IMG/VR virus record: IMGVR_UViG_3300035660_000006
Direction: 5' to 3' (one strand)
DNA: 64,000 nucleotides
DNA from: a virus
Numbering within the stretch: the stretch's first letter is position 1; the number at the start of each line of letters is the position of its first letter. The translations under genes and the position numbers were made by a program. Below the pieces are notes generated by a model. The model was not told the DNA's origin, did not search any database, and saw only the letters and a list, made by a program, of their open reading frames with translations. Below, one piece after another: positions 13,405 through 62,571 of this stretch.

Positions 13405-13645
13405 ATTTAATTCATACCAAAAGAGAATACTTCATGAATCTGATTATTGGTGGTTAACCTGCGAAAGAGTTGGTCAATCACTTAATGAGTTGAGCAAAAA
13501 AAGTGGGTTCAGCAATTATTGGACTAAAAAACAACTTGATGATTTAGTTCAAAAAAATATATTAATGATATTTCCTTATGGAAAACGATACAGATATGCA
13601 TATACAAAAGAATTCAAAGAAATTTTAGAAGAACTGCGAATGTAA
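13301..13645 (+). CDS. small HTH/wH-like protein (true start probably at the internal Met near 13384)
   Basis: ORF overlaps the Cas4-like gene out of frame; the C-terminal 80 aa look like a wH regulator. Confidence 0.4.
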   Translation: MERRVNGNVITARIKPNVITIIIQMIQMKKKVMLKFNSYQKRILHESDYWWLTCERVGQSLNELSKKSGFSNYWTKKQLDDLVQKNILMIFPYGKRYRYAYTKEFKEILEELRM

Positions 13646-13890
13646 TTTAAAGGCAAGAATCCCTGTCTTCCATGTCAAGTGGGTGGGTGCAATTCCCTTG
13701 CTATCCGAAAGGTAAAGGTTACAGAAATTAAAACAGTGCATAATAATGTGAAAGGTGTTTTGTGAACAGAAAATACCAAGTAGCAAAAACTATTATGCCT
13801 TCCTGAAGCCTTGACCACTTGCCTCTCGCCCATTCCCCAAGATTGGAGAAAGCAGGATATTGGGGTTAAATTCCCCACATTCGCACTATA
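13643..13890 (+). ncRNA. candidate structured non-coding RNA (class unknown; strand uncertain)
   Basis: about 250 nt with no ORF and GC well above surroundings; terminal 7-nt inverted repeat GCGAATG / CATTCGC; internal long-range complements CAAGTGG / CCACTTG; GGGTGCAATTCCC and TGGGGTTAAATTCCCCA hairpin-like motifs. Confidence 0.35.
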
Positions 13891-13949
13891 TTTTTTCTCT
13901 TGAATAGAAAATTGTTATAAATTTAAAGTTTAAAATTAAAAATTTAACT

Positions 13950-14915
13950 ATGACAAAAACAACACAATATGATGAAGATTTTTGGGAAACAAATTTCATA
14001 AAAAAAGTTTTGGTCGGTCTTGGAATATTAGTTTGTGCAGTTATTCTATTGAGTTTAGTAAGCAGTTTTTGGCAAGAAATTCCAGCAGGAAATGTTGGTG
14101 TCATGGAGACATTCGGAAAAGTAAGCCCAACAACCTATAATTCTGGGTTAGTTTTTCCAAAAAATCCTTTCGCAAGATTCAATATTTACAACATGAGAAT
14201 GCAGAAATTAAACATAGAAAATCTTGAAGCAAGTGATAAGGAAGGACAGTTGGTTTACGCAGATATTGTAATCAATTACAAAATAAAAGATAACAATTCT
14301 GCGAGAAGAATATTACTTGAGATAGGAAAACCATCTGATTATGTAGATATAATGGCATTAAAAGAAAAGACAACACAAGGTTTCAAGCAGACAACAGTGA
14401 ATTATGAAGCGATGGAAATTCTCGAAAAAAGACAGGAAGTAAGCGACAAAGCAAGGGATAATATTTTCAATCGTTTGCCCACAGATTTGCTTGATGTTGA
14501 ATCAATAAACATTGTTGACATTAGATTTACCCAAGCATTTGATGATGCGATTGAAAGAAAGAAAGTTGCAGAGCAATCAGCACTCGCATCAGAGAACGAA
14601 GTGAAAGTTGCAGAGGCAGAAGCAAAGAAATTAGTTGCACAAGCAGAAGGAGAAAAGAAGGTGACAATACTTAATGCAGAAGCACAGGCAGAACAAAAAT
14701 TAGTTATCGCAAAGGCAGAAGCACAATCATTAATGTTGCAGAAGGAACAAATTACTCCATTGATACTTCAGTTAAGACAGATTGAAGCACAAGTGAAAGC
14801 ATACGAGAAGTGGAATGGTCAGTTACCAACAATAATTTCAGGTCAAGGAAGCATTCCATTCATCAACATGAATTTTGATTCCCAACAATCAAAGATTAGT
14901 AGTGGGGGTGGTTAG
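13950..14915 (+). CDS. SPFH/band-7 (prohibitin/stomatin/HflK-like) membrane protein
   Basis: N-terminal TM; SPFH core (IPAGNVGVMETFGK...); Ala/Glu/Lys-rich coiled-coil tail. Confidence 0.75.
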   Translation: MTKTTQYDEDFWETNFIKKVLVGLGILVCAVILLSLVSSFWQEIPAGNVGVMETFGKVSPTTYNSGLVFPKNPFARFNIYNMRMQKLNIENLEASDKEGQLVYADIVINYKIKDNNSARRILLEIGKPSDYVDIMALKEKTTQGFKQTTVNYEAMEILEKRQEVSDKARDNIFNRLPTDLLDVESINIVDIRFTQAFDDAIERKKVAEQSALASENEVKVAEAEAKKLVAQAEGEKKVTILNAEAQAEQKLVIAKAEAQSLMLQKEQITPLILQLRQIEAQVKAYEKWNGQLPTIISGQGSIPFINMNFDSQQSKISSGGG

Positions 14916-14982
14916 TTTTTTTTATTTTTTTTAATTTAATATTATTTTAATATTAATCTAATATTAGTTTAATAGTGATAAC

Positions 14983-15180
14983 ATGGCAGATATAACAATA
15001 ACAAAAATTTTACTAACATTCATAGTCAGGTTTATTCTCGTTAATTTGGCTTTCGGTTTGGTTTATCTCATAGACAAATTTTCCAAGACAGGAAACGAGT
15101 GGGATTTGAAATATATGCTTGTTGTTTCTTTCTTATCAACAGTTTTTATGACAATATTTTATGTGCTTGGGGTGTTATGA
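14983..15180 (+). CDS. small two-TM membrane protein (possible SPFH partner)
   Basis: two hydrophobic helices; directly downstream of the SPFH gene. Confidence 0.4.
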   Translation: MADITITKILLTFIVRFILVNLAFGLVYLIDKFSKTGNEWDLKYMLVVSFLSTVFMTIFYVLGVL

Positions 15181-15314
15181 TGCCGAGTGGCTACGATAAT
15201 ATGAACGATTGGTATGAGAATTCCAGAAGGAAGAAAAAACAGATAGACAAAACATTAAAAACCTAAAAAAACTATCAATGTTAGGGTATTTTCAAAAAAA
15301 AAGGGGTTAGACAA

Positions 15315-16442
15315 ATGGAAATAATAATAGATGAAGAATTTCATAATTTAATTCCACCTTTACACGAAGAAGAGTTTAAGCAACTCGAAGAAAGTGTAAT
15401 AAAAGAAGGGTGTCGAGATGTTTTAGTTTTATGGGGTAAAATATTACTTGATGGACATAATAGATATGAAATTTGCTCAAAGAACAACATTCCTTTTAAG
15501 ACAACACAAAAAGAATTCAAAGACAGGAACGAAGCAAAAATATGGATAATTCAAAACCAATTTGGAAGGAGAAACATTAACGCTTATCAAAAATCTGTTC
15601 TCGCTATAAAATTAAAATCTATTTTTGAAGAGATTGCCAAAAAAAACATTTCTTTAAGTGGTGGAGATAAAAAAAGTGAAGAATATAAATCAGGTTTGAC
15701 GAAATCATCAAAGCCGATTGAATCGATTCATACAAGAAAAGAACTCTCAAAAATAGCCCATGTTTCAGAAGACACTATTCAAAAAGTTGAAAAAATTGAA
15801 AAGGAAGCAACGAAGGAAGAAAAAAAAGAATTAGTAGAAGGGAAAGCATCAATTAATGAGATTTATATGAAAGTTCGCAGAAAGAATAGAGTTATATCAC
15901 AAACACCACCATTACCAGAAGGTAAATTCAACATACTTTACGCAGACCCACCATACAAATATGATTTCTCTTTAACTGTTAGCAGAGAGATAGCACAAAA
16001 TTATCCAGATATGGATACAGACGATATTTGTGCTTTGAAAGATAAGTTGCCAGTAGATGATAATGTTGTATTATTACTCTGGTGTCCAGCCCCAAAACTA
16101 AAAGATGGATTAAGGATTATGCAGGAATGGGGTTTCACTTACAAAACCCATGCTGTTTGGGACAAGGAAATAATAGGCATGGGTTATTGGTTTAGGTCGC
16201 AACACGAATTACTTTTGCTCGGTGTGAAAGGAAATTTTTCTCCACCAGACCCAAGCAGTCTTTTTAGTTCAATTATAAGAGAAAAAAGAACTGAACACAG
16301 CAAGAAGCCAGAAAAAGTTTATGATATGATTGAGAAAATGTTCCCTCAAGGGAAATATTTAGAACTCTTTTCAAGAACTAAAAGAAACAATTGGACAGGT
16401 TGGGGGTTAGATTATCCAAGTGGTAATAATGGGCAGAAATGA
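15315..16442 (+). CDS. ParB-like nuclease domain fused to N6-adenine DNA methyltransferase (MT-A70/DPPY type)
   Basis: N-terminal ParB-N fold (DGHNRYEIC); C-terminal ILYADPPYKYDF DPPY motif plus HAVWDKEIIGMGYWFRSQHELLLLGVKG. Confidence 0.8.
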   Translation: MEIIIDEEFHNLIPPLHEEEFKQLEESVIKEGCRDVLVLWGKILLDGHNRYEICSKNNIPFKTTQKEFKDRNEAKIWIIQNQFGRRNINAYQKSVLAIKLKSIFEEIAKKNISLSGGDKKSEEYKSGLTKSSKPIESIHTRKELSKIAHVSEDTIQKVEKIEKEATKEEKKELVEGKASINEIYMKVRRKNRVISQTPPLPEGKFNILYADPPYKYDFSLTVSREIAQNYPDMDTDDICALKDKLPVDDNVVLLLWCPAPKLKDGLRIMQEWGFTYKTHAVWDKEIIGMGYWFRSQHELLLLGVKGNFSPPDPSSLFSSIIREKRTEHSKKPEKVYDMIEKMFPQGKYLELFSRTKRNNWTGWGLDYPSGNNGQK

Positions 16443-16953
16443 TTTAATTGAAGATTTTGCTCTTGAAGAAATAGCGTCAGAGTGGTTTAATGAATTCTAC
16501 AAAAAATATTTCAAAGCAACGAAAATTTTAGATGTAACTAAAAAAGAAGAATACCAGAAGATAGGAATTGACAAAATACTAACTGTTGGGAATGGTGAAG
16601 AAATAAAAGTGGAAGAAAAAGTAAGGAGTTGGAGAAATAGGGACTTCTTCAAGAAGGATATTCTGTTCGAGTATTGGCACTCAAAAAGGAATTGGCTCGG
16701 TTGGGTATACACAACACAAGCAAAATATTATGTTTATGGTTTGTCTAACGAAAATAAGAATGGATTTGGCGATAGTGTAAGGGTTGTTGATTTACAACCA
16801 GATGGAAATTCTAACTCGTTCAAAATATTTATTAGAGGGAATAACTGGCAGACATCAAATACAGAAACTATAAAAAATGGTGTGAAACTTTACAGAACAA
16901 AAAATTTCATTGTTCCAATTGAAGATTTGGGAGATTGGGTCACGATAGTTTAG
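16420..16953 (+). CDS. hypothetical protein (177 aa)
   Basis: ORF overlapping the ParB-MTase stop. Confidence 0.45.
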   Translation: MVIMGRNDLIEDFALEEIASEWFNEFYKKYFKATKILDVTKKEEYQKIGIDKILTVGNGEEIKVEEKVRSWRNRDFFKKDILFEYWHSKRNWLGWVYTTQAKYYVYGLSNENKNGFGDSVRVVDLQPDGNSNSFKIFIRGNNWQTSNTETIKNGVKLYRTKNFIVPIEDLGDWVTIV

Positions 16954-16959
16954 TGCAGT

Positions 16960-17688
16960 ATGACCAAGAGGTGTGGAAAAATGACAGGCGAAAAAATCGA
17001 AGATAAAGTGGAAAAAGTGGAAAGTGAAGAGGAACAACCACAAGAAGAGAAGATAGAAATACCTTGCCCAAGATGTGGAATGAAAGAAATGTTTTTAACC
17101 AAAACTAAAAGGTCATTTGCTTGGAAATGCAAAAATTGTTCTTTTGATTCAAATAAACTTTCAGATGTATTTTCTCATCCGAAAAAGGAACTAATAGTCG
17201 CACAAAAACTAAAGGAACTTTGCCCACATCTGTTGTTTGTGGAGAATACCCCAATAGACAGTGATTTGATTGCTGGTAAGGAAGGCAAATCTCCTGTAAA
17301 GTATGATTGTTCTGTATTCTTTTTTGGAGATAAGATTGACAAGATAAAAGTTTCTATCTTGCAGAACATAGATGTAGACAGATATTTGACAACTGAAGAG
17401 CAATACCTTCAGGGTTCTATGAAAGTGTTTGAATATTTGGCTAAAATTGATAGCCTGATGATATTTTATGCACCACAAGAGCCAGTGGAAGAAAAAAGGT
17501 TAGGTGTAGCATCATGCAAGGATTTGAAAAAATTTGCAGTAGAGGTTAAGGATAGATTTGGTAATCAACAACTAAGCATACCAAAAGAAATCAGACCAAC
17601 TCTAATAACATTTGACAGAGAAAAGATTGTATCCATGCTTCACAGAAATCTCTGGAAGATAATCAAGGAAAGAAGATATATGTTCTGA
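16960..17688 (+). CDS. zinc-ribbon protein (242 aa)
   Basis: CPRCGM...CKNC. Confidence 0.5.
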   Translation: MTKRCGKMTGEKIEDKVEKVESEEEQPQEEKIEIPCPRCGMKEMFLTKTKRSFAWKCKNCSFDSNKLSDVFSHPKKELIVAQKLKELCPHLLFVENTPIDSDLIAGKEGKSPVKYDCSVFFFGDKIDKIKVSILQNIDVDRYLTTEEQYLQGSMKVFEYLAKIDSLMIFYAPQEPVEEKRLGVASCKDLKKFAVEVKDRFGNQQLSIPKEIRPTLITFDREKIVSMLHRNLWKIIKERRYMF

Positions 17689-18633
17689 TTACTTTTTAAA
17701 ACTAATTCCACTCAATGTTGGGTCAAGGATTACATCAATTCCCATCAATCTGTTGACAGTCTTTGCAACTTCTGTCATGAAATCATACCAGTCGGTTGTT
17801 GGCAACATTCTTCTGTCGAAACCAAATTTATCTGCATCTTCCCTGTAAGAAAGTGAACCTTTGCCTATGCATTCATTGATTGCACTGATTGTTTTGTCTG
17901 CATCAACTCTTGACTTCTCAAATTTTAGAATGACTTGTCCCATAGTTTTTTTAGGCTCTTCAATTATAATTGGCTCTGGTCTACTTCTAAGAGCAGTCTC
18001 TTTTGTAATGATTGGAGACCATTCCCTGTTCATTATCCTTACTTTTCTGCTTAATTTTGCTATAGAATAAATTGCTGTTGAAGATAAATCGAATTTTTTA
18101 CCTGCATTCTCCCAACATTCATAAGGATTTTTATTTAGATAATTAACAATTTTTTCATTCCTTTCATTAATCCAATCCATGCTTCTGCCTGTTCTGACTC
18201 TATGTCCACCAGCACTGCCGAGTTTTTGACCTTTCATCCAGTCATAAAAAGTAGTATAACTGACATTAATGATTTTTCCTATTTTTTCCATAGTGGCTTC
18301 TGGGTGCAAACTTTTGTAACTTTTAACATAATTGATTACATCCCTTTTAAGTTGGTAACTATAATTTCTTGGTCTTTTTGAACCTTTTTGTCTGTCTGCT
18401 TCTTTTACTCCATCTTTTACTTTCAAGAACAAATCATTCAGTTGTTTTTTATCAAGAGTTGGTCTTCTGCTTGGAGTGACCGAAAAGGGTGGCACTCTAC
18501 CCCCAATTGTTGGTGGTTTATATGGTTCAAGAACAACAACCTTATTATCATCTTTTTCCTTAAAAGAACCCAGAACAGCAGTAATTTTGTCCATACTATC
18601 CATGTTAGTATCCAATTCTATTGTAATTTTCAT
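17689..18633 (-). CDS. HTH domain protein (314 aa)
   Basis: HTH-like segments (EATMEKIGKIINVSYTTFYDWMKG); first gene of the minus-strand block. Confidence 0.5.
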   Translation of the reverse strand: MKITIELDTNMDSMDKITAVLGSFKEKDDNKVVVLEPYKPPTIGGRVPPFSVTPSRRPTLDKKQLNDLFLKVKDGVKEADRQKGSKRPRNYSYQLKRDVINYVKSYKSLHPEATMEKIGKIINVSYTTFYDWMKGQKLGSAGGHRVRTGRSMDWINERNEKIVNYLNKNPYECWENAGKKFDLSSTAIYSIAKLSRKVRIMNREWSPIITKETALRSRPEPIIIEEPKKTMGQVILKFEKSRVDADKTISAINECIGKGSLSYREDADKFGFDRRMLPTTDWYDFMTEVAKTVNRLMGIDVILDPTLSGISFKK

Positions 18634-25849: not shown

Positions 25850-25900
25850 TTTTTTCTTTTTTTCAATTTTTAAAATTTAACATTAAATTTCCAAATTTTT

Positions 25901-25922
25901 AAAAATATTTAAATATTTGTAA
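25901..25922 (+). promoter_or_regulatory. conserved palindromic archaeal promoter element AAAAATATTTAAATATTTGTAA
   Basis: near-identical 22-nt motif repeated at 49065, 60625 and 63524; ATG about 24-25 nt downstream. Confidence 0.6.
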
Positions 25923-25945
25923 ATCTAAATTATAACAAGATAGTT

Positions 25946-28352: not shown

Positions 28353-28656
28353 ATGCACAAAAAGAAAGATTATTATGATAGAGTAGTAGAAAAGGAAATA
28401 TTAAAATTGAATAAACAGGGAAAGTCTATTGATGAGATTGATGAACATCTTGTTTATGGTATGGAATTCTCCCCAGAATATTCATGGGAGATGATTAAAA
28501 AAACACTTAAATTAAAACAAAAGGTGAAATGAATGTACACAAGAAAAAAATTTATGAAATATATAAATGAGATGGGAAATTTAGGATTATTAAATTACGA
28601 AGAACATACAAAAATCAAAGAAAGAATTATGTCTAATCCAAATTTAAGGTGAAAAA

Positions 28657-28845: not shown

Positions 28846-28860
28846 TACTATACAGTAGTA
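28846..28860 (+). promoter_or_regulatory. palindrome TACTA-TACAG-TAGTA upstream of the LAGLIDADG gene
   Basis: same ACTA/TAGT arms as the other two copies; 32 nt before the ATG. Confidence 0.4.
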
Positions 28861-28892: not shown

Positions 28893-29711
28893 ATGAATAA
28901 AAAAAATAGAATATTATTAGCAAAATTACTTGGTTATATACATTCAGATGGTTGTTTTGTTAATAGAGGTAACAATATTTTTAAAGTTCAATTTGATAAT
29001 GATGATTTTACTTTAATAAAAGATTTTTCGGATAGTTTTCAAAGGGTTTTTTTAGTAAAACCACATATTCATTCATATTTTAAAAATGATAAAAAACATT
29101 TTTTTGTTGGAAAACAAGACCAAAAAATTATTAAAATAATGAGATTATTTGATATTTTTTCATTTAATAAAAAAGAGAAATGTGCCTATCTTTCAGGTCT
29201 TTATGATGGTGATGGAAGTGTTAGTTTTGGATTTAAAAAAGATGGACAAATGAGTTTTAGAATTAGATTTCATAACAAGGATGCAAAACTTATAGAAACA
29301 GTTAAGAAATTTTTACAAGATATTGGAATTAAAAATTCAAAAATTTATTCAGAAAAAATAAGAGGTTATGGGAGTGGAATTTTTTATAATATTTCAATAA
29401 CTAATCAAAAAGATGCTAAAATTTTTTATGAAAATATTAAGTTAAAATCAAAACATAAAATGGTAGCATTAAAAAATTATTTAAAAATAATTAAACCATA
29501 TTCTTCTGATAAATATTCATTTAAATTGAAAGAAAAGGCAATAAAACTTCATAAACAAGGTTTTGGATGTAGAAAAATTGCAAAAATATTAAATGTGAGT
29601 TCTGTCAGAGTAACAAGATGGTATAAACAATTTGGTGATACAAAAAGATATAAAGGTTATCCTGCAAGATGGGATGTGGTAAAAGAAAAAGTTCTTTTCT
29701 TCAAAAAATAG
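28893..29711 (+). CDS. LAGLIDADG homing endonuclease with C-terminal HTH
   Basis: two LAGLIDADG motifs (LLAKLLGYIHSDGCF; AYLSGLYDGDGSV); C-terminal HTH GFGCRKIAKILNVSSVRVTRW. Confidence 0.8.
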   Translation: MNKKNRILLAKLLGYIHSDGCFVNRGNNIFKVQFDNDDFTLIKDFSDSFQRVFLVKPHIHSYFKNDKKHFFVGKQDQKIIKIMRLFDIFSFNKKEKCAYLSGLYDGDGSVSFGFKKDGQMSFRIRFHNKDAKLIETVKKFLQDIGIKNSKIYSEKIRGYGSGIFYNISITNQKDAKIFYENIKLKSKHKMVALKNYLKIIKPYSSDKYSFKLKEKAIKLHKQGFGCRKIAKILNVSSVRVTRWYKQFGDTKRYKGYPARWDVVKEKVLFFKK

Positions 29712-34380: not shown

Positions 34381-35499
34381 ATGTTAAAAAATATAAATAT
34401 GACTACAAAGGTTATAAAATGTGGTGTTGTCGGTCTAACCAACAATAAAAAAGAATGTTTGGACAGTGAATGGTCTAACTTTCAAGATTTTCTACAACTG
34501 AAAAATACTCTTTGGTGGAAGAATGATTGGGGTAAGAACATCTATTCTGCCAACAAACAACAGGCAGAAAGGTTCTACAAATCAATAGAGGAAGGAAAGG
34601 AATACCCAATTTCAATCAGAAAAGACCTAATACAGATTGAAAAAAAGGATACAAAACTCGCTAAATATTGGTTCAGAATGAGAGTTAAGTCAAAAAGAAA
34701 TCTATGGTTGGCAATAAAACCACACCAACCAATCTCTGATGATGTTGAATTTCAAGAGAGTAAATTACTTAAAAAGAATGGTCAATACTTCATCTATCTT
34801 ACTATTCAAAAGGAAATCAAAATAAAAAAATCATACTCAAACATACTCTCCATAGATTTAGGAGTGAAATGGATTGCTACTGTCTGTGACATGAAATCCA
34901 AAAGACCTGTTTTCTATGGGAAAGAGTTGAGAGGAATTAGAGGAAAACATTTCTATCTAAGAAGGAAAATTCAAAAGAAAAAGATAAGACAAATGGGAAA
35001 GTGGTTGGAAAATAACAAAGAAGAAAGAATAGTGAATGACTTAATACATAAAATTTCAAGAGATATTGTCAATAAAGCAAAGGAAACAAACTCCATGATT
35101 TGTTGGGGTGATATAAAAGGAATAAGGAAAAACAACAAAGGAAGAAAGTTCAACAGGAAATTGAATAGTTTTCCATTCTACAAATTGAAAGAGCAAATCA
35201 GATACAAAGCAGAATGGGAAGGAATAAAAGTTGTTGAAATTAGCGAAGCATGGACATCACAAATTTGTAATAAATGTAGTGAGAAGGGAACAAGAAATAA
35301 AGGTTTGTTCAAATGTAATAGTTGTGGATATGAGGATAATTCAGATAGGAATGGTAGTCTAAACATAGGCAAACGAGTTCTTGGGCAAGTCTCAAGAATA
35401 GGGGTATCTGTGAATATACCCAAAACTGAAGCAGAAAACATAAAGAATACAAAAATTAGAAATTCAGTAAGCGACTTCAGAAGCCACCTATTTCAATAG
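34381..35499 (+). CDS. tnpB: TnpB (IS200/IS605 OrfB) RNA-guided nuclease family, solo
   Basis: RuvC-I SIDLGVKWIATV; zinc finger CNKCSEKG...CNSCGYEDNSDRNGSLNIGKR; RuvC-III. Confidence 0.85.
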   Translation: MLKNINMTTKVIKCGVVGLTNNKKECLDSEWSNFQDFLQLKNTLWWKNDWGKNIYSANKQQAERFYKSIEEGKEYPISIRKDLIQIEKKDTKLAKYWFRMRVKSKRNLWLAIKPHQPISDDVEFQESKLLKKNGQYFIYLTIQKEIKIKKSYSNILSIDLGVKWIATVCDMKSKRPVFYGKELRGIRGKHFYLRRKIQKKKIRQMGKWLENNKEERIVNDLIHKISRDIVNKAKETNSMICWGDIKGIRKNNKGRKFNRKLNSFPFYKLKEQIRYKAEWEGIKVVEISEAWTSQICNKCSEKGTRNKGLFKCNSCGYEDNSDRNGSLNIGKRVLGQVSRIGVSVNIPKTEAENIKNTKIRNSVSDFRSHLFQ

Positions 35500-49056: not shown

Positions 49057-49064
49057 AAATATTG

Positions 49065-49087
49065 AAAATATTTAAATATTTGTAAGT
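49065..49087 (+). promoter_or_regulatory. conserved palindromic promoter element GAAAATATTTAAATATTTGTAAG
   Basis: identical to the 60625 copy; ATG 22 nt downstream. Confidence 0.6.
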
Positions 49088-49108
49088 TCTAAATAATAAT
49101 AGATTATT

Positions 49109-52040: not shown

Positions 52041-52885
52041 TTGCATTCATTAGAGAGAGAAGAAGAACAACAAAGTGGTAATTTAATTAGCGAGGGAGTC
52101 GCTGGGTGGAAAATGCTTTTCAATGCGATAAAAAGGAAAAAACCAGAGGAACAGCAATCACAACCGATTAATAATTAATGCGTATAAAGGCAGAAAAATT
52201 TAACTTCCGAGAATATCAGCAGGTATTTGATGACGAAGTTTTATATTTATAATTTCACTTTTTCCACTTTTTTATAGATTAAAATTATATGTATACAATC
52301 GTATTCAATTATTTAATTTTAAAATCCTAACAATTTTTATGGATTTTGAAAACATGGAACATTTATTAAGAGTTCTTATTCTTGTTTTATTACTAATTGT
52401 CCTAATCGCAATAATTGTAAAACTTAACCAGACTTGGCATCTCTTCGATGGTTGGTTCAGGTCTATAAGTTGCTGGTTATTTGGCTGTTGAAAGTTTAAA
52501 ATCTGACATCTTGACATTCACTGACAAGTTGTCATTTTCTATACCTTATAAATAAAATTTTCTTCAAAACTATGTTTATCTATGAAAGTGATTACCTTAT
52601 GATAATCACTGAATTAGCCTTTAAAAAATAAAATGTGAAAAACATGGCAACAGTCAATGATACACTCTTTTAAGTCATTATGGTTTTAAAGAGGTCATAA
52701 TTGACTGACATTGGAAATGGAGTAGGTGCTTTGTTCACTGGTATGGGTGCAAGTTTGTAAGTGAAAATTTGCAGACCACCAGCCATTAGCAGTGTTCATC
52801 ATACTACTCGCAATAGGAACAGGGGTTGGATAGCAGAGGAATTTGCCCAAATACATCCTTGCTTCTATTGGTAGAAGGGTCGGTG

Positions 52886-52916
52886 CAAAGGTTTAAACCT
52901 TTGAATAGACTTTTTT
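52886..52916 (+). terminator. perfect 18-nt palindrome CAAAGGTTTAAACCTTTG followed by a T6 run (terminator-like or protein-binding site)
   Basis: direct reading; lies in an ORF-free region. Confidence 0.4.
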
Positions 52917-53050
52917 CCAAGTAGTCAGAATCGATGGGTTCTACCCCCAAGCGTAGAATGGCTTTTCTTTCTTTTTCTATTTTGTTAATAAATTAGACCT
53001 ATTACTCGATAAAAAACCTATATTCTAAAGTATATAAATATTTAAATACT

Positions 53051-53066
53051 ACTACGATAGAGTAGT
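53051..53066 (+). promoter_or_regulatory. palindrome ACTAC-GATAGA-GTAGT ending 5 nt before the endonuclease ATG
   Basis: related copies at 59636-59651 and 28846-28860. Confidence 0.5.
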
Positions 53067-53071
53067 GAAAT

Positions 53072-53875
53072 ATGAAGAAGTGTAAATATTGTAAGAACGA
53101 ACTTAAAAACCCTAAAAGAAGTTTTTGTAATCAAAAATGTTGGCATAGTTATTATTCTAAATATTATTCTGGAAAAAATAATCCTTGTTTTGGTATTAAA
53201 AAAAATGGAGAATACAAAAAATGTTCAAATTGTGGAAAAAAAATATGGGTTGTAAATAATAGATTGAGAAGACTAAATAATTATTTTTGTAATAGAAAAT
53301 GTTGGAGAAAATCAGAAAAGGAGTCAATAAAAGTCTTATGTAAATTTTGTGGAAAAGAAAAAATAACATACCCTTATGATAAGAATATAAAGAGAAATCA
53401 TTTTTGTAGTCAAAAATGTAAAGCAAAATGGCAGAGTGAAAATCTCAATGGAAAAAATAATAATAATTTTAATAATTATTGGAATAATCAACAAAAAAAA
53501 TCTCTTGGCGAAAAACAAAAAATAAGATTAAGAGAACATCCAGAAAAACATCCAAATAGAATTCTTGCAAAAAATGGACATATATCAACACCACAAAAAC
53601 AACTCTTCAAATTAATCAAATATTATTATCCTTCTGCTGAATTAAATCATAGAGTTATAACTAAAAATGGGTTTGGGCAAAGACATGCTGATGTTGGTCT
53701 CCCAGAATTTAAACTTGACATCGAATTTGATGGAGATTATTGGCACAACCCAGAAGATGATAGAGAAAGAGACCAAGAACTTCTCGAAGTTGGGTGGAAA
53801 ACTATTAGATTTGGTTATAAAGATTTGAAGACACCAGAAATGATAATTAAGAAAATAAAAGAATGGTTAAGTTAA
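53072..53875 (+). CDS. homing-endonuclease-like protein: three FCS-type zinc fingers plus a Vsr/DUF559-like PD-(D/E)xK domain
   Basis: CxxC...FC(N/S)xKC three times; C-terminal FDGDYWHNPEDD...GWKTIRF. Confidence 0.65.
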   Translation: MKKCKYCKNELKNPKRSFCNQKCWHSYYSKYYSGKNNPCFGIKKNGEYKKCSNCGKKIWVVNNRLRRLNNYFCNRKCWRKSEKESIKVLCKFCGKEKITYPYDKNIKRNHFCSQKCKAKWQSENLNGKNNNNFNNYWNNQQKKSLGEKQKIRLREHPEKHPNRILAKNGHISTPQKQLFKLIKYYYPSAELNHRVITKNGFGQRHADVGLPEFKLDIEFDGDYWHNPEDDRERDQELLEVGWKTIRFGYKDLKTPEMIIKKIKEWLS

Positions 53876-54732
53876 TCTTGAGGCTTTCCTATCGGCTGAT
53901 TTGTCTTGACTACCCACCGAGCATAAGGATTCATATTTATTAATTCACGACTAATATTAGCAAAATCTTCAACTTGGGCATATAGGGTATTGATTAATGC
54001 CCCATCTTTCTCTCTTTCAAAAACTTCTAATTTTCCATCAACAATATTCCCTGCTTTATCCCTCAAAACAGGATAGAAAAAATATCTTACCCTTTCAATT
54101 CCCACACCCTTAATAATAATTTTATCCCCATCTTTGATTGAAATATCATGCGTTAACTCAACAGTTTTTGTTTCTTCTGTTCCATCTTCCTTTTTTATCT
54201 TGTATTTGTATAATTTGTTGAGATTACATCTGATAATAAAATCTTCTTTAACAAGGTCGAAGAAGTCTAACCTAATCGGAACAGCAAATAAATACCATTT
54301 TTTATATTTCCAAAGACGAATATTTTGAAAACCATCTTGAGTTATGCATTCACCTAAATATTTTCCAAGATATTTCATTCCTTTATCATGAATAAGCCAA
54401 ACTTCTTTAATTGTTGGGTCTTTCTGAAATTTGCATAGACTTTTCACTTTTTTGTAATCTTCCAAGAAGACATCAACTTTCACCTTCATCCTCTTAATAA
54501 GCAAAATAATGAAAACTATAATCACTCCTGCGACTGCTATAACAATAAACCAGAGCCAATACTTTGCGATAAATCCAATTACCCCAGAAAATACTCCTGT
54601 GCTTTTTGATGGGATTGGCTCTATTACATTCTGTGCGAGAATAGGAAAGATTAAAAATAGAATTGTTAGTATGGGTAAAAACTTTTTCATGCAATAATAT
54701 TTAGATTTTAACTTTAAAAACTTTAAATCCAA
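53872..54732 (-). CDS. membrane-anchored hypothetical protein (286 aa)
   Basis: N-terminal TM segments. Confidence 0.5.
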   Translation of the reverse strand: MDLKFLKLKSKYYCMKKFLPILTILFLIFPILAQNVIEPIPSKSTGVFSGVIGFIAKYWLWFIVIAVAGVIIVFIILLIKRMKVKVDVFLEDYKKVKSLCKFQKDPTIKEVWLIHDKGMKYLGKYLGECITQDGFQNIRLWKYKKWYLFAVPIRLDFFDLVKEDFIIRCNLNKLYKYKIKKEDGTEETKTVELTHDISIKDGDKIIIKGVGIERVRYFFYPVLRDKAGNIVDGKLEVFEREKDGALINTLYAQVEDFANISRELINMNPYARWVVKTNQPIGKPQD

Positions 54733-56440
54733 ATATATATTGTGTTAAAGAATAACTATAAATTTGAAAAAATTCAAAATATTCAAAATAAAGGTGATAA
54801 AAATAGCACCAGCACCAGAAATTATAGGATTGATGTCTTTTGTAGTAATAGTGGTAGCCATAATCATGTGGGTAGTGTATTGGAAACATGCAGACTTCAG
54901 TTAAAATATTTTGGGGGTGTCTAAATGGAAAACAACCCCAATAAAAGAGTAGATACATTTCTTTTTATAATTCTTTTTATTCAGATTTTGATTCTCATAG
55001 CAATGTTCTTGGTGATTCAACAAGTCAACAAAGCAGTTGTTGAAATCAAGAAATTCTGTTGGGGGAATAAGATAGCAGACGCAATAGCGAACCCCCAGCA
55101 ACCAAGTTTGAATATAATTCAATAGGTGGGAACAATCAAAAAAGAACAAATCACAAAAATGCTAAATGACAGGATAAAATATTGGCTACAACCCAAACCT
55201 AAAAATTTAACAGTATCACCAAGTGAAGTGAAAATAAACACAGAAGAGTTGTTCAAATTTTCCTCAAGAATGATTGTTGAAGAATTAAAATTTATTAAAA
55301 AACAAATGAGGGCGATAGAATGAACATAATAATCGAATTTTTGTTGTTGATTTTTTTATTGAAAACTCTGCAAGTAAATTCAGGATTAGTGATAATTTTA
55401 ATTTGTCTGTATTTTATAATAAAATTTACAGGTTGGATTTTTTATTCAATATTTAAAGGGCTTATTGAGTATGTTAAAAAAAAGATAGAGGAGAGTTAAA
55501 TGACAACATATTTTGCATACATATTTGAATTGAAGAAGGACACACCAATCTTAAAGAAGAAATTAGAATTGCTTCTGACAAAGAATTTTACTAAATTTAC
55601 CAAAGGAGTAAGGCAATCTGATGACCTAAAAGTTTATATGAAGCAGGGCAACAAACTGGTGGTTGAATAAATGGTAATATTCGAGTTGGGAACAAAATTA
55701 GGCTCACTTGAAAAAAAATTAGGTAGAGAATCAATAGTTATGGAAATCAGCGAGTGGGAAATGAACACAATTCTTAGAGTCTTGGCAACAAGAAACAAAC
55801 CGATGTATGTCAGGATTGTCAATGAACTCATAAATGAGGCAAAGAAGGAAGGATATGATATGATGATTGCCACAGAAAAAGTGAAAGTGAAATGTCCTAA
55901 CTGCAAAAAAGAGGTGGAGATATAAAATGAAAGATTGGGTATATTGGATGGGATTTGGCACAGGAATAGGTGTAGTTTTATTTGTATTTGTTGGACTCCC
56001 ACTCATTGCTTATTTGGGATTCACAAGAAAACTAAAGTTTCTTCCAAGATTTGAAGATTTAATGAAAGAATTTCCAAATTCACTGGAAGATTTACAGAAA
56101 AGACCACCATACAACAAGATGGATTTTTCAAGTGGCTTGATAGTTATGTATTTTGAATTGATTGTTTCGCATTACTTAATCAAGATAATAAAATTTTTCA
56201 AAAGAGGTAAATAATCATGTGGATGATTTTCCATTGCTGGATTGAATTAATTATGAGCCTTGTTTTTTGGGGCAAGGTTTATTTAGACTTGCAAAAACAT
56301 AGAACACCATTAAGAGATAGATGGGTTGATTTGACAATAGATTTGTTCATGGCTATTTTATTTTCAATTGCGTTCATTGATATGTTCATGAGTATAAATA
56401 CAGCAATCAAGTTGATTAACCTAATAAAAAATATTCCAAG

Positions 56441-56677
56441 ATGAATAGTATGGGGACAACACAGGACAAAATTTTGGAGACGTTGAAAGATAATTCAAAA
56501 GGGTTGACTGCAAGGGAAATTGCAAGAGAGATGAAATATCCCTACAATAGATTACCAACTATGCTTATGAGAATGAAGAATTTTAGTTTAATTGATTTTA
56601 TATTTAAAGATAATGAGAAAATTTGGAAATTAAACTATAAAGGTGAAAATGTTGGCGAGAAGAAAAAAAGTTTGTAG
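56441..56677 (+). CDS. small winged-helix (MarR-like) protein
   Basis: LTAREIAREMKYPYNRLPTMLMRM. Confidence 0.4.
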   Translation: MNSMGTTQDKILETLKDNSKGLTAREIAREMKYPYNRLPTMLMRMKNFSLIDFIFKDNEKIWKLNYKGENVGEKKKSL

Positions 56678-57063
56678 AAGATGCAAGAAGAAAGGAATTT
56701 TCAATGATGCTAAACAAAAATTTTGTAATGTCTGCAACCATGAGATAAATCATGATAAAAGAATTTATGATACTGGAAAGAAAAAAAATTATTGGGGGAG
56801 TAATAGAAGATAAGAGGTGTCTAAATGTGATAAAAAATAAATTCGCATTGGTGATGTGTTTTGGCTAAAAATTCTTGAAGGGAGACTTTCGGAATTAGTT
56901 ACATAGAAACACTTCTGCTACAATATACTTTCAATGCCTAATCGCATGAAAGGTTGCAAGAGCAGAAGACATTCGCAGTAATTATTCTGGCATACTCCAC
57001 ATTTGTTTAGAGATAGTCAAGGCTCACTCGAAGGTAGACCAATCCCCAGAAATTAAGAATGCG

Positions 57064-57387
57064 TTGAAGAGATTGGAATTTATTAAAAATAATACTTCAA
57101 CAAAATTAAACACACCATATTTTATTATTGTTCATAGCATAGCAAGAAACATGGCAAGACCATTAACATTCCCAATTGAAGTCAAGACTGGGAAAAGACA
57201 GACAAGGGAATTTGAACTCGGAGAACTCATTCAAGAATTAGAGGAAGCACATATTAAAATTAACGAGATAGAACAGCAGATTGCCCAGAATTATTCAATA
57301 GATATTCCACTCAACCAGCAAGGACAGGCTATTGTATTTGATTTCAATAATCCAAAGCAAGGTATGGAAGACAGATTCAAATTTTAA
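57064..57387 (+). CDS. hypothetical protein upstream of the endonuclease gene
   Basis: ORF. Confidence 0.4.
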   Translation: MKRLEFIKNNTSTKLNTPYFIIVHSIARNMARPLTFPIEVKTGKRQTREFELGELIQELEEAHIKINEIEQQIAQNYSIDIPLNQQGQAIVFDFNNPKQGMEDRFKF

Positions 57388-58361
57388 TGGTGAAAAAAAC
57401 GAATTGCAAAGAAATAAAAATTAATAGAGAAGAATTATTTAAAAAATATGTTATTGAAAAAAAATCAACACCAAAAATTGCTAATGAGGTTAATAGTAAT
57501 AGAGAAACAATTAGAAAACTTTTACATTTTTATAAAATACCAATTAAAATACCTATTAAAGAAACAATCAGTAAAGAAGAATTAGAAAAATTATATATTA
57601 ATAAAAAAATGTCTTGTAACGAAATAGCAGAAAAATTTAAAACTAATAGAGAAACTATAAGAAAATTACTTCATTTTTATAAAATTAAAATACAACCTTC
57701 TTCAGAAAGATTGAAAGGTAATAAATTTATGTTAGGTAAAAAACATTCAGAAGAAACTAAGATAAAAATAAGTCTTAAACATAAAGGTAAAAAATGTCCC
57801 TTTTTATCAGAATACAATAAAAAATATAAAAGTCAACAAATGAAAGAAAGATGGGAGAACCCATTTTATAGGAAACAACAATCTGAAAGTATGAAAAAAA
57901 ATAATCCAATGAAAAATCCAATTTTTAGAAAAAAGGTTAGTTTGTCAAAAATTGGAGATAAAAACCCATGTAAAAGACCTGAAGTAAAAGAAAAACTAAG
58001 AAAATTTAGAATGACACAAAAATTTCCTTTAAAAAATACAACAATTGAAACATTATTACAGAATGAACTTGAAAAAAGAAACATTCAATTTACTCCTCAT
58101 AAAACAATTTTAAATATAACACAACCAGATGTTTTTATCGAACCAAACATTTGTGTTTATTGTGATGGAGATTTTTGGCATAGTAATCCTAAATTTTATG
58201 ATAGAAATAATTTGAAATATAAAAGTCAAATAAACAATTTAAAAAATGATGAAAAAAATAATATAATTTTAAAAGAAAATAACTATAAAGTTTTTAGATT
58301 TTGGGAAAATGATATTTTAAATAATGTTTCAAAATGTGTAGAAGAGATAATAAATAATTGA
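57387..58361 (+). CDS. homing-endonuclease-like protein: HTH repeats plus NUMOD3 motifs plus Vsr/DUF559-like domain
   Basis: duplicated NRETIRKLLHFYKI; NUMOD3-like HSEETKIKIS...NPMKNPIFRKKVS; C-terminal CVYCDGDFWHSNP...RFWEND. Confidence 0.65.
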   Translation: MVKKTNCKEIKINREELFKKYVIEKKSTPKIANEVNSNRETIRKLLHFYKIPIKIPIKETISKEELEKLYINKKMSCNEIAEKFKTNRETIRKLLHFYKIKIQPSSERLKGNKFMLGKKHSEETKIKISLKHKGKKCPFLSEYNKKYKSQQMKERWENPFYRKQQSESMKKNNPMKNPIFRKKVSLSKIGDKNPCKRPEVKEKLRKFRMTQKFPLKNTTIETLLQNELEKRNIQFTPHKTILNITQPDVFIEPNICVYCDGDFWHSNPKFYDRNNLKYKSQINNLKNDEKNNIILKENNYKVFRFWENDILNNVSKCVEEIINN

Positions 58362-58512
58362 TTAATATGAAATGCGACAGATGTTTGAGATATTTTGACC
58401 AAAGTTGCCCTTTGATTTATGGAGAATTAATAACAGGTAATTGTAAATATTTTTTGAAATTAAATTAATAATTAAAAGAGGTGGTGATTAAAATTAGAAA
58501 AGGTGAATTTCA

Positions 58513-59604
58513 ATGGTAGAATTTCCAAAAATAGAACCAAAATTAGTAGCACCAAGAATCATCAATGCGAAATGGATTGTTGACCCAATTCAAGACACAG
58601 AATTACAGGAACAGATGAGTAAAAATCCAATGTTTGCAGAAGCAATTTTAAGACCAAGAACAGAACTTTTGATTAGAGCAATACAAGAAAAAGTGAGATA
58701 CAGGGAACATATAGGCATAGAAATTAAGGGAGGAACACGAACAGGAAAATCCAGCATAGCAATAGCACTTTGCAAATTCATAAGTGCATTGACAGGAGTC
58801 CCTTTCACTTTGAAACATATTTGCCCAAACGAGATAATTTATCTCCAAAGATTGAAAGACCCAAAATTACCAAATGGTAGTGTGTTTCTAATTGATGAGC
58901 AAACTGAAACGCATACAGGGGCAGGAAGTTATTCGGAAATGTCTGTCCTTGAAGATATTCAACAGATTTGTGCAAAGGAACAGATACATTCGATTTGGTG
59001 TCATCCTCATGAATTTGTTGGCAGGATGTCCACAATCGGACTTGAGACCTATGGGAAAGACCCAGAAAATCTTCTGTGTAGATGTATCATGTATAATATA
59101 GCAACAAGCAGATTGACTAAAGTTCCAATGGGGCAAGTGATTATTCCAGTAGGACAATTGTATAGTTGTGGCTTATTTGGTAAGCCGACAAGAACTGCAA
59201 CAGGATTGAATACAATAATAACATGCATTGAAGATATTTGTCCAAGATATGGAAAGTGTCAAGAATTCATGGCTCAATATGAATATGAGAAAGACAGCAA
59301 AATCAAGCAAGTAAGGACAAGAAGCCTAAAAGACAGGGAAGTGGAAAGGTTAATGATGATTGACCACATTGCAAAAGACAAGAACTTTCAGAATGCAAAG
59401 AATAATGATGAACGAATGAGTTTAGCCAGATTTTTAGTCCCTTTCGGAACTCCAGAAAAATTAATTGGAGAACTATTGAAAATGGCAGTCGCAGTAATTG
59501 AAAAAAGAATCGACATAAAAGAACTCAAGAAGAGTTTAGTCGAGCAAGGCAACATTTCGCAGGAAGAAAGTGAGGAAGGAGAAGAAAATGAGGAAGAGAA
59601 CTAA
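58513..59604 (+). CDS. P-loop NTPase (candidate DNA-packaging or replication ATPase)
   Basis: Walker A GGTRTGKSS; Walker B VFLIDEQTE; acidic C-terminus. Confidence 0.55.
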   Translation: MVEFPKIEPKLVAPRIINAKWIVDPIQDTELQEQMSKNPMFAEAILRPRTELLIRAIQEKVRYREHIGIEIKGGTRTGKSSIAIALCKFISALTGVPFTLKHICPNEIIYLQRLKDPKLPNGSVFLIDEQTETHTGAGSYSEMSVLEDIQQICAKEQIHSIWCHPHEFVGRMSTIGLETYGKDPENLLCRCIMYNIATSRLTKVPMGQVIIPVGQLYSCGLFGKPTRTATGLNTIITCIEDICPRYGKCQEFMAQYEYEKDSKIKQVRTRSLKDREVERLMMIDHIAKDKNFQNAKNNDERMSLARFLVPFGTPEKLIGELLKMAVAVIEKRIDIKELKKSLVEQGNISQEESEEGEENEEEN

Positions 59605-59635
59605 CTTTTTTCTTAAATAGATAAGTTTATATATA

Positions 59636-59651
59636 ACTACGATATAGTAGT
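59636..59651 (+). promoter_or_regulatory. palindrome ACTAC-GATATA-GTAGT ending 4 nt before the endonuclease-like ATG
   Basis: direct reading. Confidence 0.5.
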
Positions 59652-59655
59652 AATT

Positions 59656-60597
59656 ATGGGAAGATATAAAGTAAGATGTAGAATTTGTGGTAGATTTTTC
59701 TCTAAAATAGATTGGAGTCATTTAAAAAAACACAATATAACTTTCAAAAAATATAAAATTAGATTTCCTAATAGTAAAACTCAATCAGAGTTAACAACAA
59801 AAAAATTCATTAAAAATGGTTCTAAAAATATTAAATATATATTAGAAAAGCCGAAAAAATTAAGGTCTAAATGGGGGAAGAAAACTGGTATTTTAGGTGT
59901 TTTGTCAAGAGAGGATAGAAGAAAACGAGACTTAAAATATAACAAACATTGGGAAAAAACATTCACAATTGGACAGAAAAAAAGGGATAAAAAAAGGAAA
60001 AAGAGAAGGAAAAATGACCCAAAATTTGATAAAAAATTGAGAAAAGTTAGTAGAAAGAATGGAATTAAAACACAAAAAATTATGAAACAAAAATCTAAAC
60101 AAGATTATAATTACGAAAAATGGCTTAAAGAAAGACAATCATTGGGACAAATAAAAGCACAAAAAATAATAAAAAAGAGAAGGCAAGAAGACCCAAAATT
60201 TGATAAATATTTAAGAAAGTGTTGTAGTATTGCTGGTTTTATTGGTCTTAAAAAACTTCGTGAAAATAGTCCATTTTGGTTTATGGGTGTTCCTTTTGCT
60301 TCACCTTCTGAAAGAGAATGTGCCAAATTATTTTACAAACATCTTAATTGGATACCAAAAGAAGGAGTAAATTGTCATATTCAAATAGGGAGATGTGAAT
60401 ATGATTTTAAAATTAGTGGTTGTTTTGTTGAATATCATCCAAAAAGTGATTTGTATGATACAACAATCAAAATTTATTATCAGAAGAGAAGAAGAAATCT
60501 CGATAAAAACAATCTTAAAAATAAGAAACTATTTATTCTTCAAAACCTCGAAGATGTCATGAATTTCATAAATATAGAGAAATTTAACAAAAAATAG
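59656..60597 (+). CDS. endonuclease-like protein with basic repeats and a DUF559/Vsr-like C-terminal region
   Basis: N-terminal CRICGRF zinc motif; repeated DPKFDK(K/Y)LRK; CEYDFKISGCFVEYHP. Confidence 0.5.
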   Translation: MGRYKVRCRICGRFFSKIDWSHLKKHNITFKKYKIRFPNSKTQSELTTKKFIKNGSKNIKYILEKPKKLRSKWGKKTGILGVLSREDRRKRDLKYNKHWEKTFTIGQKKRDKKRKKRRKNDPKFDKKLRKVSRKNGIKTQKIMKQKSKQDYNYEKWLKERQSLGQIKAQKIIKKRRQEDPKFDKYLRKCCSIAGFIGLKKLRENSPFWFMGVPFASPSERECAKLFYKHLNWIPKEGVNCHIQIGRCEYDFKISGCFVEYHPKSDLYDTTIKIYYQKRRRNLDKNNLKNKKLFILQNLEDVMNFINIEKFNKK

Positions 60598-60624
60598 TCA
60601 TTTAACCTTCTTTTTTAATTTTTT

Positions 60625-60647
60625 GAAAATATTTAAATATTTGTAAG
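60625..60647 (+). promoter_or_regulatory. conserved palindromic promoter element GAAAATATTTAAATATTTGTAAG
   Basis: ATG 24 nt downstream (60671). Confidence 0.6.
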
Positions 60648-61708
60648 TTCTATATTTATTATTGATTAACATGGTTCACATGATTGAAAAGAAAGATATT
60701 TCAATTACAGGAGAAGAAATATTCTTACCAACTTCCCCTGAAGAGTTAGGAGAAGAAAAAATCGAGCAAGAACCTGTTGAAGAGAAACCTCTGCCCACAA
60801 AACCAGAGGATATTGAATAATGCTTATAATGAGGTGAAAAAAATGAGAACTGGTAGACACAGACCAAATAAATATACAAAACATAAGGTAACAAAACTAA
60901 GAACAATCGAAATACCTGAAGGGTTCAAATTTTTGACAGTTGAGAGACATCCACATGAACCACGAAGGATGAGAATTGTTTTTAAAAAGGATTGAAGAAA
61001 ATGCACAAAAAAACAGACAGTTTAAGTGACCCCAATGATTGGGAACATGTTAAGTTTATGGAAAATGAAGGAGATAGATATTTAGACGAAATGGATAAAG
61101 ACCTCGAAGATATTGATTCGCAATTATAATTAAATTAAAGGTGAAAAAATGGCAAAAAGAAAAATGGGAAAACATAAGGTTAAAGAAACTAATCCATTTG
61201 CTGGGGATTTGAAAGATTTGGAAGGTTATGGAAAAGCATTGCTAAAACAAAAATATACACCAGTAGTGCAACCAAGTCTTGCAAAAGTTAGAAAACCAGA
61301 GGCGTTATTCTAAAATGGCACACAAGATTAGCATGAAAACAATGGCTGGTGCTGTCGCAAGTCCAAAAACTCCAATGAGATTAAAATTAGGATTAGTAAA
61401 AAAATATCCAGCATTGAAGCAATACATGAAGTGAGGTTAATGCCTCATAAAATTAAAAAAGAAATGTTGCGAGATTTAATTACTCAGGAAAAAATGAATT
61501 TAAAATTTATTCAACAATTACCAAAAATAGATTATGAAGCATTTAGATATACAGTAAAAACCCCAGTATCAGGGGAATTTTCAGTTTTAGGCTCTGGATT
61601 TGTTCCAAGCGAGAAAGGGTTTAAGGCAATTAAACCATTATTAAATTAAGGTGAAAATAATGCACAAGAAAAAAGATAATAAAGCAAATCCCTTTGCTAA
61701 TCCATTAA

Positions 61709-62353
61709 ATGAATGGATTAAATCAGGGGAAAAATGGGCTGTCAAATCAGGTGATTAATATTTCCAAAAAAAGTGGAAAGCATAAAATCAGAAAAAGAGA
61801 GCCTGATTTATTTGAGCAGTATGAAGCCGAATTTGAACGAATGTATCCTGAAGAAGAGGAATATGAAGAAGAGCCAGTTGAAAAAGTGAAAGTGAAAAAA
61901 TCAAAAGGTATACATAAGGTTCAGAAAGAAGAATCATTATCATTATTTCCAAGTCCTGAAGATTTGCCAGAAGAAGAAAGCGAAGAAGATTGGTTAGAAA
62001 GACAAAGAAAAGGTTATGAAGAACAAGCAGAAGATTTCAAAAAAATGGCAGAAAGTGGGCAGAAGTTTGCATTAGGAACTTACCACACTGTAAACAAAGC
62101 AGTTCAGGGTGCTAAAAGAGTTGGGAAAAAATTAAATCTAACATTACAAATGATTAAGAGTAAATTTGGAAAGCATAAAGTTCCAAATCAACCTATTCAA
62201 GTTTTCATAGAACCCACAGAAGAGGGTGATTATGTTGTTTATGGTCAAACTACAAGAAGAGAAGTCCCTGTTTCAAAACCAACACAACCAGTTAAAGTTT
62301 ATACTGAATATCCATCAGAAGAAGAATATGTAAAATATGAGGAGTTGATGTAA
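61709..62353 (+). CDS. acidic hypothetical protein (214 aa)
   Basis: ORF within M(V)HKK array 3. Confidence 0.45.
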   Translation: MNGLNQGKNGLSNQVINISKKSGKHKIRKREPDLFEQYEAEFERMYPEEEEYEEEPVEKVKVKKSKGIHKVQKEESLSLFPSPEDLPEEESEEDWLERQRKGYEEQAEDFKKMAESGQKFALGTYHTVNKAVQGAKRVGKKLNLTLQMIKSKFGKHKVPNQPIQVFIEPTEEGDYVVYGQTTRREVPVSKPTQPVKVYTEYPSEEEYVKYEELM

Positions 62354-62571
62354 TGGTTCATAAAAAAAGTTTAGTATTAACAAAAGAAGATAAAATAAAT
62401 TATGAAAAAGGATTTCAAAGTGGATTTGAAGGTAAAGATATGGGATATTTCAAAGGTTCATTTTATGAAAGAGGATGGAATGATGGAAGATTACATAGAG
62501 ATGTTAAAATAATAGATGAAGTAAAATCACTAAGAAATAAAATGTATAAAAAACATAAAAGGTTAAGTTAA
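62353..62571 (+). CDS. small protein, MVHKK start
   Basis: ATGGTTCATAAAAAAAG. Confidence 0.45.
   Translation: MVHKKSLVLTKEDKINYEKGFQSGFEGKDMGYFKGSFYERGWNDGRLHRDVKIIDEVKSLRNKMYKKHKRLS

Follow-up and report, generated by a model that had tools for sequence, protein, structure and literature searches.

The 64-kb window analysed here (64,000 nucleotides of the 73-kb source contig of the virus record IMGVR_UViG_3300035660_000006) carries on its plus strand three genes, A (53072–53875), B (57387–58361) and C (59656–60597), which we interpret as free-standing Vsr-like homing endonucleases. Ahead of A and of C, a few nucleotides before the start codon, stands a 16-bp palindrome that we read as the operator of a repressor. 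For this statement as a whole we put the probability at roughly 0.6. Its parts differ in strength: that A and B are homing endonucleases is, to judge from their sequences, very probable, that C is one is probable, and the operator, taken by itself, falls a little short of an even chance.

In each of the three proteins a variable DNA-binding front end (zinc fingers in A, helix-turn-helix (HTH) and NUMOD3 modules in B, a C2H2 finger and helical repeats in C) is joined to a C-terminal nuclease. In the mechanism that we propose, the nuclease would cut endonuclease-free alleles near a conserved ATPase gene, and recombinational repair would then copy the endonuclease gene in. A and C come with promoters of their own, of which the 16-bp palindrome is a part. 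Bound to this operator, a dimeric DNA-binding repressor would block polymerase recruitment and would keep the two endonuclease genes silent or timed.

Vsr-like nuclease domains behind different DNA-binding modules

A sequence-only reading of the window had singled out these three open reading frames (ORFs) and proposed that their C-terminal domains are of the Vsr/DUF559 type, with a PD-(D/E)xK core. The ORFs and their motifs are indeed present as it described them, and the nuclease assignment holds, for A and B by profile searches and for C by predicted fold. Queries of PDB chains with A, B or C as single sequences were of no use, and family profiles were needed.

Gene B is a plain member of the EDxHD, or Vsr-like, homing endonucleases, whose prototype is I-Bth0305I (PDB 3R3P; Dassa et al. 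2009, PMC2677866; Taylor et al. 2011, PMC3239194). The gene begins within the end of the one before it, start and stop overlapping, and its 324 residues comprise a duplicated HTH (residues ~20–50 and ~64–96), NUMOD3 (22.3 bits) and DUF559 (21.6 bits), the latter two both above the Pfam gathering thresholds; Vsr is matched with E 7e-4. The EDxHD signature is full (E221-D248-D260-H265-D288) and all five residues are conserved. More than 120 relatives of B were found, the majority with NUMOD3 and Vsr/DUF559, and a B-family profile built on 38 sequences has as its top match E. coli Vsr (1cw0, E 6.4e-13), with 3r3p also matched (E 7.3e-9).

The product of A (267 aa) is a member of the same family with zinc-finger front ends and one signature substitution. 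Its three CxxC..FCxxKC units (C4/C7..FCNQKC, C55/C58..FCNRKC and C90/C93..FCSQKC) match the Pfam model zf-FCS under threshold (E 0.027), and these modules are common to A and PHROG 1271, annotated as 'HNH endonuclease' (E 1.6e-8). The protein further has an HPEKHPN motif and the nuclease domain, with the motifs FDGDYWH and GWKTIRF. The signature residues are Q175-D207-D220-H225-D230, a Q standing at the place of the first E of EDxHD; this Q is kept in the nearest relatives and is an E in more distant ones. Ten relatives of A were found, and the A-family profile matches 3r3p, the catalytic domain of I-Bth0305I (E 2.3e-7), as well as Vsr (E 1.5e-4) and the DUF559-like 3hrl. Furthermore, the nuclease domains of A and B align to each other with an hhalign probability of 99%.

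The protein encoded by C (313 aa) has a C2H2 (ROS/MucR-like) finger, CxxC-x10-HxxxH, helical repeats with two DPKFDKxLRK units and a divergent Vsr-like domain (residues ~205–313) with the motif EYDF..FVEYH. Used alone as a query it has zero Pfam, PHROG or PDB sequence matches, and a word-indexed search returned one non-self homologue. A HMMER scan with its last 118 residues retrieved 291 cluster representatives (50% identity), in which the domain is always C-terminal. This C-type domain was detected by no Pfam, PHROG, NCBIfam or PDB sequence profile, and it was not found in GTDB genomes or in IMG/VR with the patterns used. The residues of note in C are S216, E219, D250, E259, H261, Y274 and R278: across the family E219, D250, E259 and H261 are conserved and Y274 and R278 invariant, the last Asp is not clearly placed, and the conserved signature reads S..E / D-F / E-x-H / Y..RR..LD.NG. 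A three-sequence C alignment gave no hhalign signal against the A and B families; with 50 sequences the C alignment comes into register with A and B, not significantly. Among those 50 C-type proteins the front end includes NUMOD3 in 8 and a ROS/MucR finger in 7, and relatives of C also carry front ends that PHROG names 'homing endonuclease'. One protein (P0141) joins the first zinc finger of A to a C-type nuclease. The best PDB match of the C model is I-Bth0305I, and the C domain may form an unannotated, highly divergent branch of the Vsr-like homing endonucleases, a proposal supported by the predicted fold only. A family model for it could end the 'hypothetical' annotation of such proteins.

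The three genes share with the EDxHD family the N-terminal modular DNA-binding region (NUMOD/HTH) ahead of a C-terminal Vsr-like nuclease. Members of the family are found as free-standing genes, within introns, and inside intein halves or between them, with control elements carried along with the gene; B has its full signature, and I-Bth0305I is the best PDB match for both the A-family profile and the C model. They differ from it in their setting, an archaeal-type virus with TATA-box promoters and a window in which no intron is seen, in the fingers and the substituted E of A, and in a C domain that lies beyond the reach of sequence profiles. With E. coli Vsr, DUF559 (PF04480) and MTES_1575 they have a common fold and catalytic core (equivalents of Vsr D51, H69 and D97). 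However, E. coli Vsr is a single-domain mismatch nickase of ~150 aa encoded beside dcm, whereas A, B and C are 267–324 aa long, with long N-terminal DNA-binding regions, a mobile distribution and no adjacent cytosine methyltransferase gene. Indeed, an MT-A70 methylase gene (15315–16442) is the sole methyltransferase gene seen in the window.

Empty sites, cassette borders and the ATPase gene

Related contigs, designated by L numbers, were recovered through homologues of the endonucleases and through the ATPase gene. L004, L005/L007 and L006 are syntenic with the window at ~85% nucleotide identity. B is absent from every relative assembly that spans its site (L004, L005/L007, L006, L011/L014 and L013), in which ~85 bp are found instead of ~1.08 kb; in L004 the segments corresponding to window positions 56962–57410 and 58490–62366 lie at 13569–14020 and 14106–18021. 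L008 (478–1071) and L012 (4020–4670) hold a free-standing HNH endonuclease gene at the equivalent site. Right after B a new ATG opens a small Cys-rich ORF, MKCDRC... (58368–58466, plus strand), as read from the sequence. It has ~32 aa with the pattern CxxC...C...C and an intact copy in L004 (13997–14098), and B seems to have acquired its own start from the first ~8 codons of this ORF.

C is absent from L008, L009, L011, L012 and L013. L011 offers a clean empty site, and the inserted cassette spans ~59605–60605 (~1 kb). When compared with L004, the C ORF is 95–98% identical and its flanks ~85%, and its synonymous divergence (dS) is 0.136, against ~0.6 for neighbouring genes. The A site is held by variant endonuclease genes in L011 and L013. 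In the L004 comparison the promoter and first 500 nt of A are 90–98% identical and the flanks 57%; the dS of A is 0.38. Identity changes in sharp steps at the cassette borders. The ratios dN/dS (nonsynonymous to synonymous divergence) of 0.24 for A and 0.25 for C point to purifying selection; a low dS together with a low dN/dS argues that A and C are functional and have been exchanged more recently than their surroundings. In L001 the middle of C has been replaced, both ends are near-identical in protein, and the 3′ part with the downstream DNA is 98% identical. Beside A, the segment 53870–54745, with a gene on the minus strand (53872–54732), runs the opposite way in L004, L012 and L013, and in L011 and L014 it is oriented as in the window; no long inverted repeats were found around it.

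Between B and C lies the conserved P-loop ATPase gene (58513–59604, plus strand), which is likely the target region of the endonucleases. Its homologues in L009 (15–2105), L011 (4535–7756), L012 (4785–6859) and L013 (8619–10609) were compared, and in relatives the gene is interrupted by inteins at three sites: in the P-loop (GGTR|C...HN|TGKST), where the intein is of LAGLIDADG type and forms a single ORF in L009; after Walker B (IDEQ|S...HN|TETH); and at W|C...HN|CHPHEF. In L011, L012 and L013 a stop closes the ORF with the N-intein, and a second ORF, which starts at an overlapping ATG, comprises a Vsr-like nuclease, the C-intein and the C-extein, an arrangement that resembles the published 'fractured gene' split-intein layout. 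The nucleases of the L011 and L013 inteins resemble A in that a Vsr core goes with FCS-type fingers or the HPEKHPN motif. Searches of IMG/VR, GenBank phages, GTDB genomes and PDB returned no relative of the ATPase. As for L001 (34–1108), its ATPase frame is in four pieces owing to frameshifts, which could be sequencing error or a decaying gene beside an endonuclease gene.

As far as sequences can tell, A, B, C and the inteins are a textbook case in which homing endonuclease genes crowd around a conserved gene. The idea of modular homing endonucleases, also part of the sequence-only reading, is supported by the empty sites, by a dS at odds with that of the neighbouring genes, by relatives within inteins and by the exchange of modules. 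A further parallel is with the seg and mob genes of T4, which likewise stand free beside or between conserved genes, with different endonuclease families alternating at one site, a mosaic of identity, and a promoter of their own beside a regulatory element directly 5′ of the start codon. The T4 enzymes are, however, of the GIY-YIG and HNH families, and the T4 elements are strong hairpins that sequester the ribosome-binding site or operators that resemble the homing site, whereas we find a weak stem, an archaeal, leaderless-looking promoter and no resemblance to a homing site.

The palindrome ahead of A and C

Internal genes of the window have a Shine-Dalgarno (SD) sequence, GGTGA, a few nt 5′ of the ATG. 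Genes that come first in an operon lack it and have a TTTAWA-type box, most often starting at −30 to −28. A and C fall into this second class: their TATA-like octamers lie at −31/−30 to −24/−23 from the ATG, the register of the other SD-less first genes, which argues that their mRNAs are probably leaderless, in which case the palindrome would occupy the stretch from the TATA box to the start site. The promoter cassette of A (variant 1, 52955–53071, plus strand) consists of a T-run, the 14-mer CTATATTCTAAAGT (53018–53031), the TATA-like TTTAAATA (53041–53048) and the palindrome ACTACGATAGAGTAGT, ACTAC-GATAGA-GTAGT (53051–53066, −21 to −6), our proposed operator. That of C (variant 2, 59605–59655, plus strand; it forms the left part of the cassette absent from L011) has a T-run, the TATA box TTTATATA (59626–59633) and the palindrome ACTACGATATAGTAGT, ACTAC-GATATA-GTAGT (59636–59651, −20 to −5). 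The T-runs are likely terminators. The gap between palindrome and ATG is 5 nt in A and 4 nt in C, so that the sequence-only reading was right about the position. It was probably mistaken in seeing an overlap with the ribosome-binding site, which is unlikely for two genes of the SD-less TATA-box class with the palindrome between this box and a probable leaderless start.

Several observations set the motif apart from its surroundings. ACTAC-N6-GTAGT occurs exactly twice in the window, where shuffled sequences lead one to expect 0.01 and where none of 100 shuffles had at least two, and in the window and the related loci it is found only 5′ of homologues of A and C. The two promoter variants agree at 15 of the 16 palindrome positions, and in its arms at 10 of 10, against 25 of 41 in the surroundings (binomial P ~0.004). 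The A cassette is 97% identical to that of L004, as against 57% for the 200 nt further upstream, and in L004 a ~105-bp promoter of the A type also precedes C, the identity stopping at the ATG. The motif is missing upstream of the distant C-family genes of L017, L019 and L020. An exact search of IMG/VR for the palindrome followed by ATG gave two matches, both inside helicase/terminase ORFs, where the letters encode HYDIVV, and these were set down to chance; so was a near-match within an ORF at 28372, ATTATGATAGAGTAGT.

The half-sites of the palindrome are 11 bp apart centre to centre, a spacing that would suit a dimer. In archaea, palindromic operators between the TATA box and the transcription start are bound by MDR1, LrpA, Phr and viral regulators of the ribbon-helix-helix (RHH) and winged helix-turn-helix (wHTH) types. 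The palindrome of A and C, a short one between TATA box and start site, may by analogy belong with them. A and C have no DNA-binding module in common, yet the arms are identical, which argues for one common factor; a virus-encoded regulator shared by the two promoters, or one endonuclease acting on both, would be more economical than separate self-repression. Control elements carried with Vsr-like genes have already been described, and the palindrome would be a local variation on this theme, set in an archaeal promoter.

Such elements have been described as RNA hairpins, and a hairpin is our second choice, although a doubtful one. In transcripts that read through from the gene upstream, the motif would fold just 5′ of the start codon and hinder translation of the endonuclease, as in marine Vsr-like endonuclease genes, where hairpins are found in 15 of 16 5′ untranslated regions and were brought in with the gene (PMC2677866), and in T4 I-TevI, segB and mobE, where hairpins sequester the ribosome-binding site, I-TevI being an autorepressor as well (review, PMC2988022). 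The motif does fold as a 5-bp stem; its 3′ arm overlaps a weak SD-like AGTGA, though in variant 1 only; and in L013 the homologous place, ahead of a distant A-like gene, is taken by a true AGGTG. However, the stem is weak (−4.2 kcal/mol alone, with a z-score of −0.8 to −1.7 in its context) and leaves the start codon outside, variant 2 has no convincing SD, both genes come after T-runs and have their own TATA box at leaderless distance, and an internal AUG without SD would be poorly translated anyway. Autorepression, in which the endonuclease would occupy the palindrome of its own promoter and leave it uncut, like I-TevI on its operator (PMC2988022), strikes us as unlikely. I-Bth0305I is a dimer whose core target is the pseudopalindrome TTxG-N6-CxAA, with a 6-bp spacer (PMC3239194), and a dimeric nuclease of this kind could fit ACTAC-N6-GTAGT. 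But the arms are identical in A and C, whose DNA-binding modules differ and whose nuclease domains are very distant, and in L004 both genes are preceded by one and the same ~105-bp promoter; and the I-TevI operator resembles its homing site, whereas nothing like the palindrome stands at or near the empty sites. We judge equally improbable the proposal that C represents a new divergent Vsr-like branch and/or that the palindrome is the operator of a dimeric Vsr-like endonuclease. Were an endonuclease to bind this operator, it would repress two promoters, its own and the one ahead of a second, unrelated endonuclease gene, which would make it a first instance of endonuclease (cross-)autoregulation for an archaeal virus.

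We give next to no weight to the palindrome as a cleavage or insertion site, which the sequence-only reading had entertained, or as a cut site that drives the exchange of promoter cassettes between loci. The geometry is like that of the I-Bth0305I core site, and the copying of the A promoter ahead of C in L004, with identity ending at the ATG, could be so explained. However, allowing for up to 3 mismatches, the palindrome is found neither at the empty sites of C (L011, L008, L009, L012 and L013) nor at those of B, and it lies within the inserted C segment, ~30 bp from the left junction; it is therefore part of the mobile cassette rather than its insertion site. Moreover, a genome with two copies of the target would cut itself. 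It is also very improbable that the three genes, rather than being mobile, encode ordinary nucleases of the virus or repair enzymes of the Vsr type, with the palindrome left by a recent promoter duplication. JGI does name such products 'very-short-patch-repair endonuclease', and the promoters of A and C are homologous. Against this stand the presence/absence polymorphism of B and C, the other endonuclease family found at the same site in relatives, a dS discordant with the flanks, homologues within inteins, front ends typical of homing endonucleases, and the conservation of the palindrome beyond its surroundings.

Homing endonucleases with a repressor operator ahead of A and C are the reading that we prefer, and the following points weigh against it. 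The Q that replaces the first E of EDxHD in A could reduce its activity. C is Vsr-like at the fold level only (hhalign probability 6%, Foldseek E 0.36). Empty sites, for which the sequence-only reading had suggested a search of related genomes, exist for B and C, but no endonuclease-free allele at the A site is present among the relatives found. As for the operator, the leaderless start is deduced from promoter geometry, no candidate for the repressor emerged from the analysis, and the palindrome is available in two sequence variants only, which fit a DNA site and an RNA stem alike.

Two further motifs lie near these genes or resemble theirs. A free-standing LAGLIDADG gene with a C-terminal HTH (28893–29711) is preceded, 33 nt from its ATG at 28893, by TACTATACAGTAGTA, TACTA-TACAG-TAGTA (28846–28860), which the sequence-only reading had taken as related to the palindrome. 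The motif is present, but its spacer is 5 nt, not 6, it stands upstream rather than downstream of a TATA-like element, and chance would give 0.2 occurrences of the looser pattern that it fits. Taken on its own the motif is weak, and how it relates to the palindrome is uncertain. The exact 14-mer CTATATTCTAAAGT is common to the upstream regions of the LAGLIDADG gene and of A, in which the order of the elements differs. Just 5′ of the A cassette, in an ORF-poor stretch (~52500–52960), lies a perfect 18-bp palindrome, CAAAGGTTTAAACCTTTG (52886–52903), which is largely kept in L004 (its last base is changed) despite diverged surroundings.

The virus and other features of the window

Our results leave the current understanding of homing endonucleases unchanged: the elements are of an ordinary kind, in an uncultivated archaeal-type virus from a group about which little is known. 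They add to the hosts of Vsr-like homing endonucleases an archaeal-type virus lineage that was not met in searches of IMG/VR, GenBank phages and GTDB representative genomes. The region is a compact natural example of DNA-binding modules and promoters being swapped and of endonuclease genes piling up around one essential gene, which in relatives has free-standing endonuclease genes to either side in addition to its three intein sites, and the palindrome offers a small, well-defined candidate operator for the study of transcription control in these viruses.

The window has a G+C content of ~30%. Besides the genes discussed above, with the MT-A70 methylase and the LAGLIDADG protein among them, it encodes an MCM helicase, a ParB-like protein and a TnpB-like protein, together with numerous small ORFs and large Asn/Thr-rich proteins. 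The MCM helicase, the TATA-box promoters and the GGTGA Shine-Dalgarno sites argue for an AT-rich archaeal virus or virus-like element, an assignment of host that we infer from these features. A tRNA search of the window found none, and a scan with Rfam found no known RNA family. The TnpB-like gene, which is also Cas12f-like, lies at 34381–35499 (Cas12f1-like_TNB, E 7.6e-21).

Lastly, a promoter-like block, GAAAATATTTAAATATTTGTAAGTTCTA, is repeated 5′ of three genes (25900–25945, 49060–49108 and 60620–60670), and a second, TTTAAAGTTAAAA, is found ahead of many other genes of the window. This suggests that the two blocks are distinct promoter classes, perhaps temporal ones.

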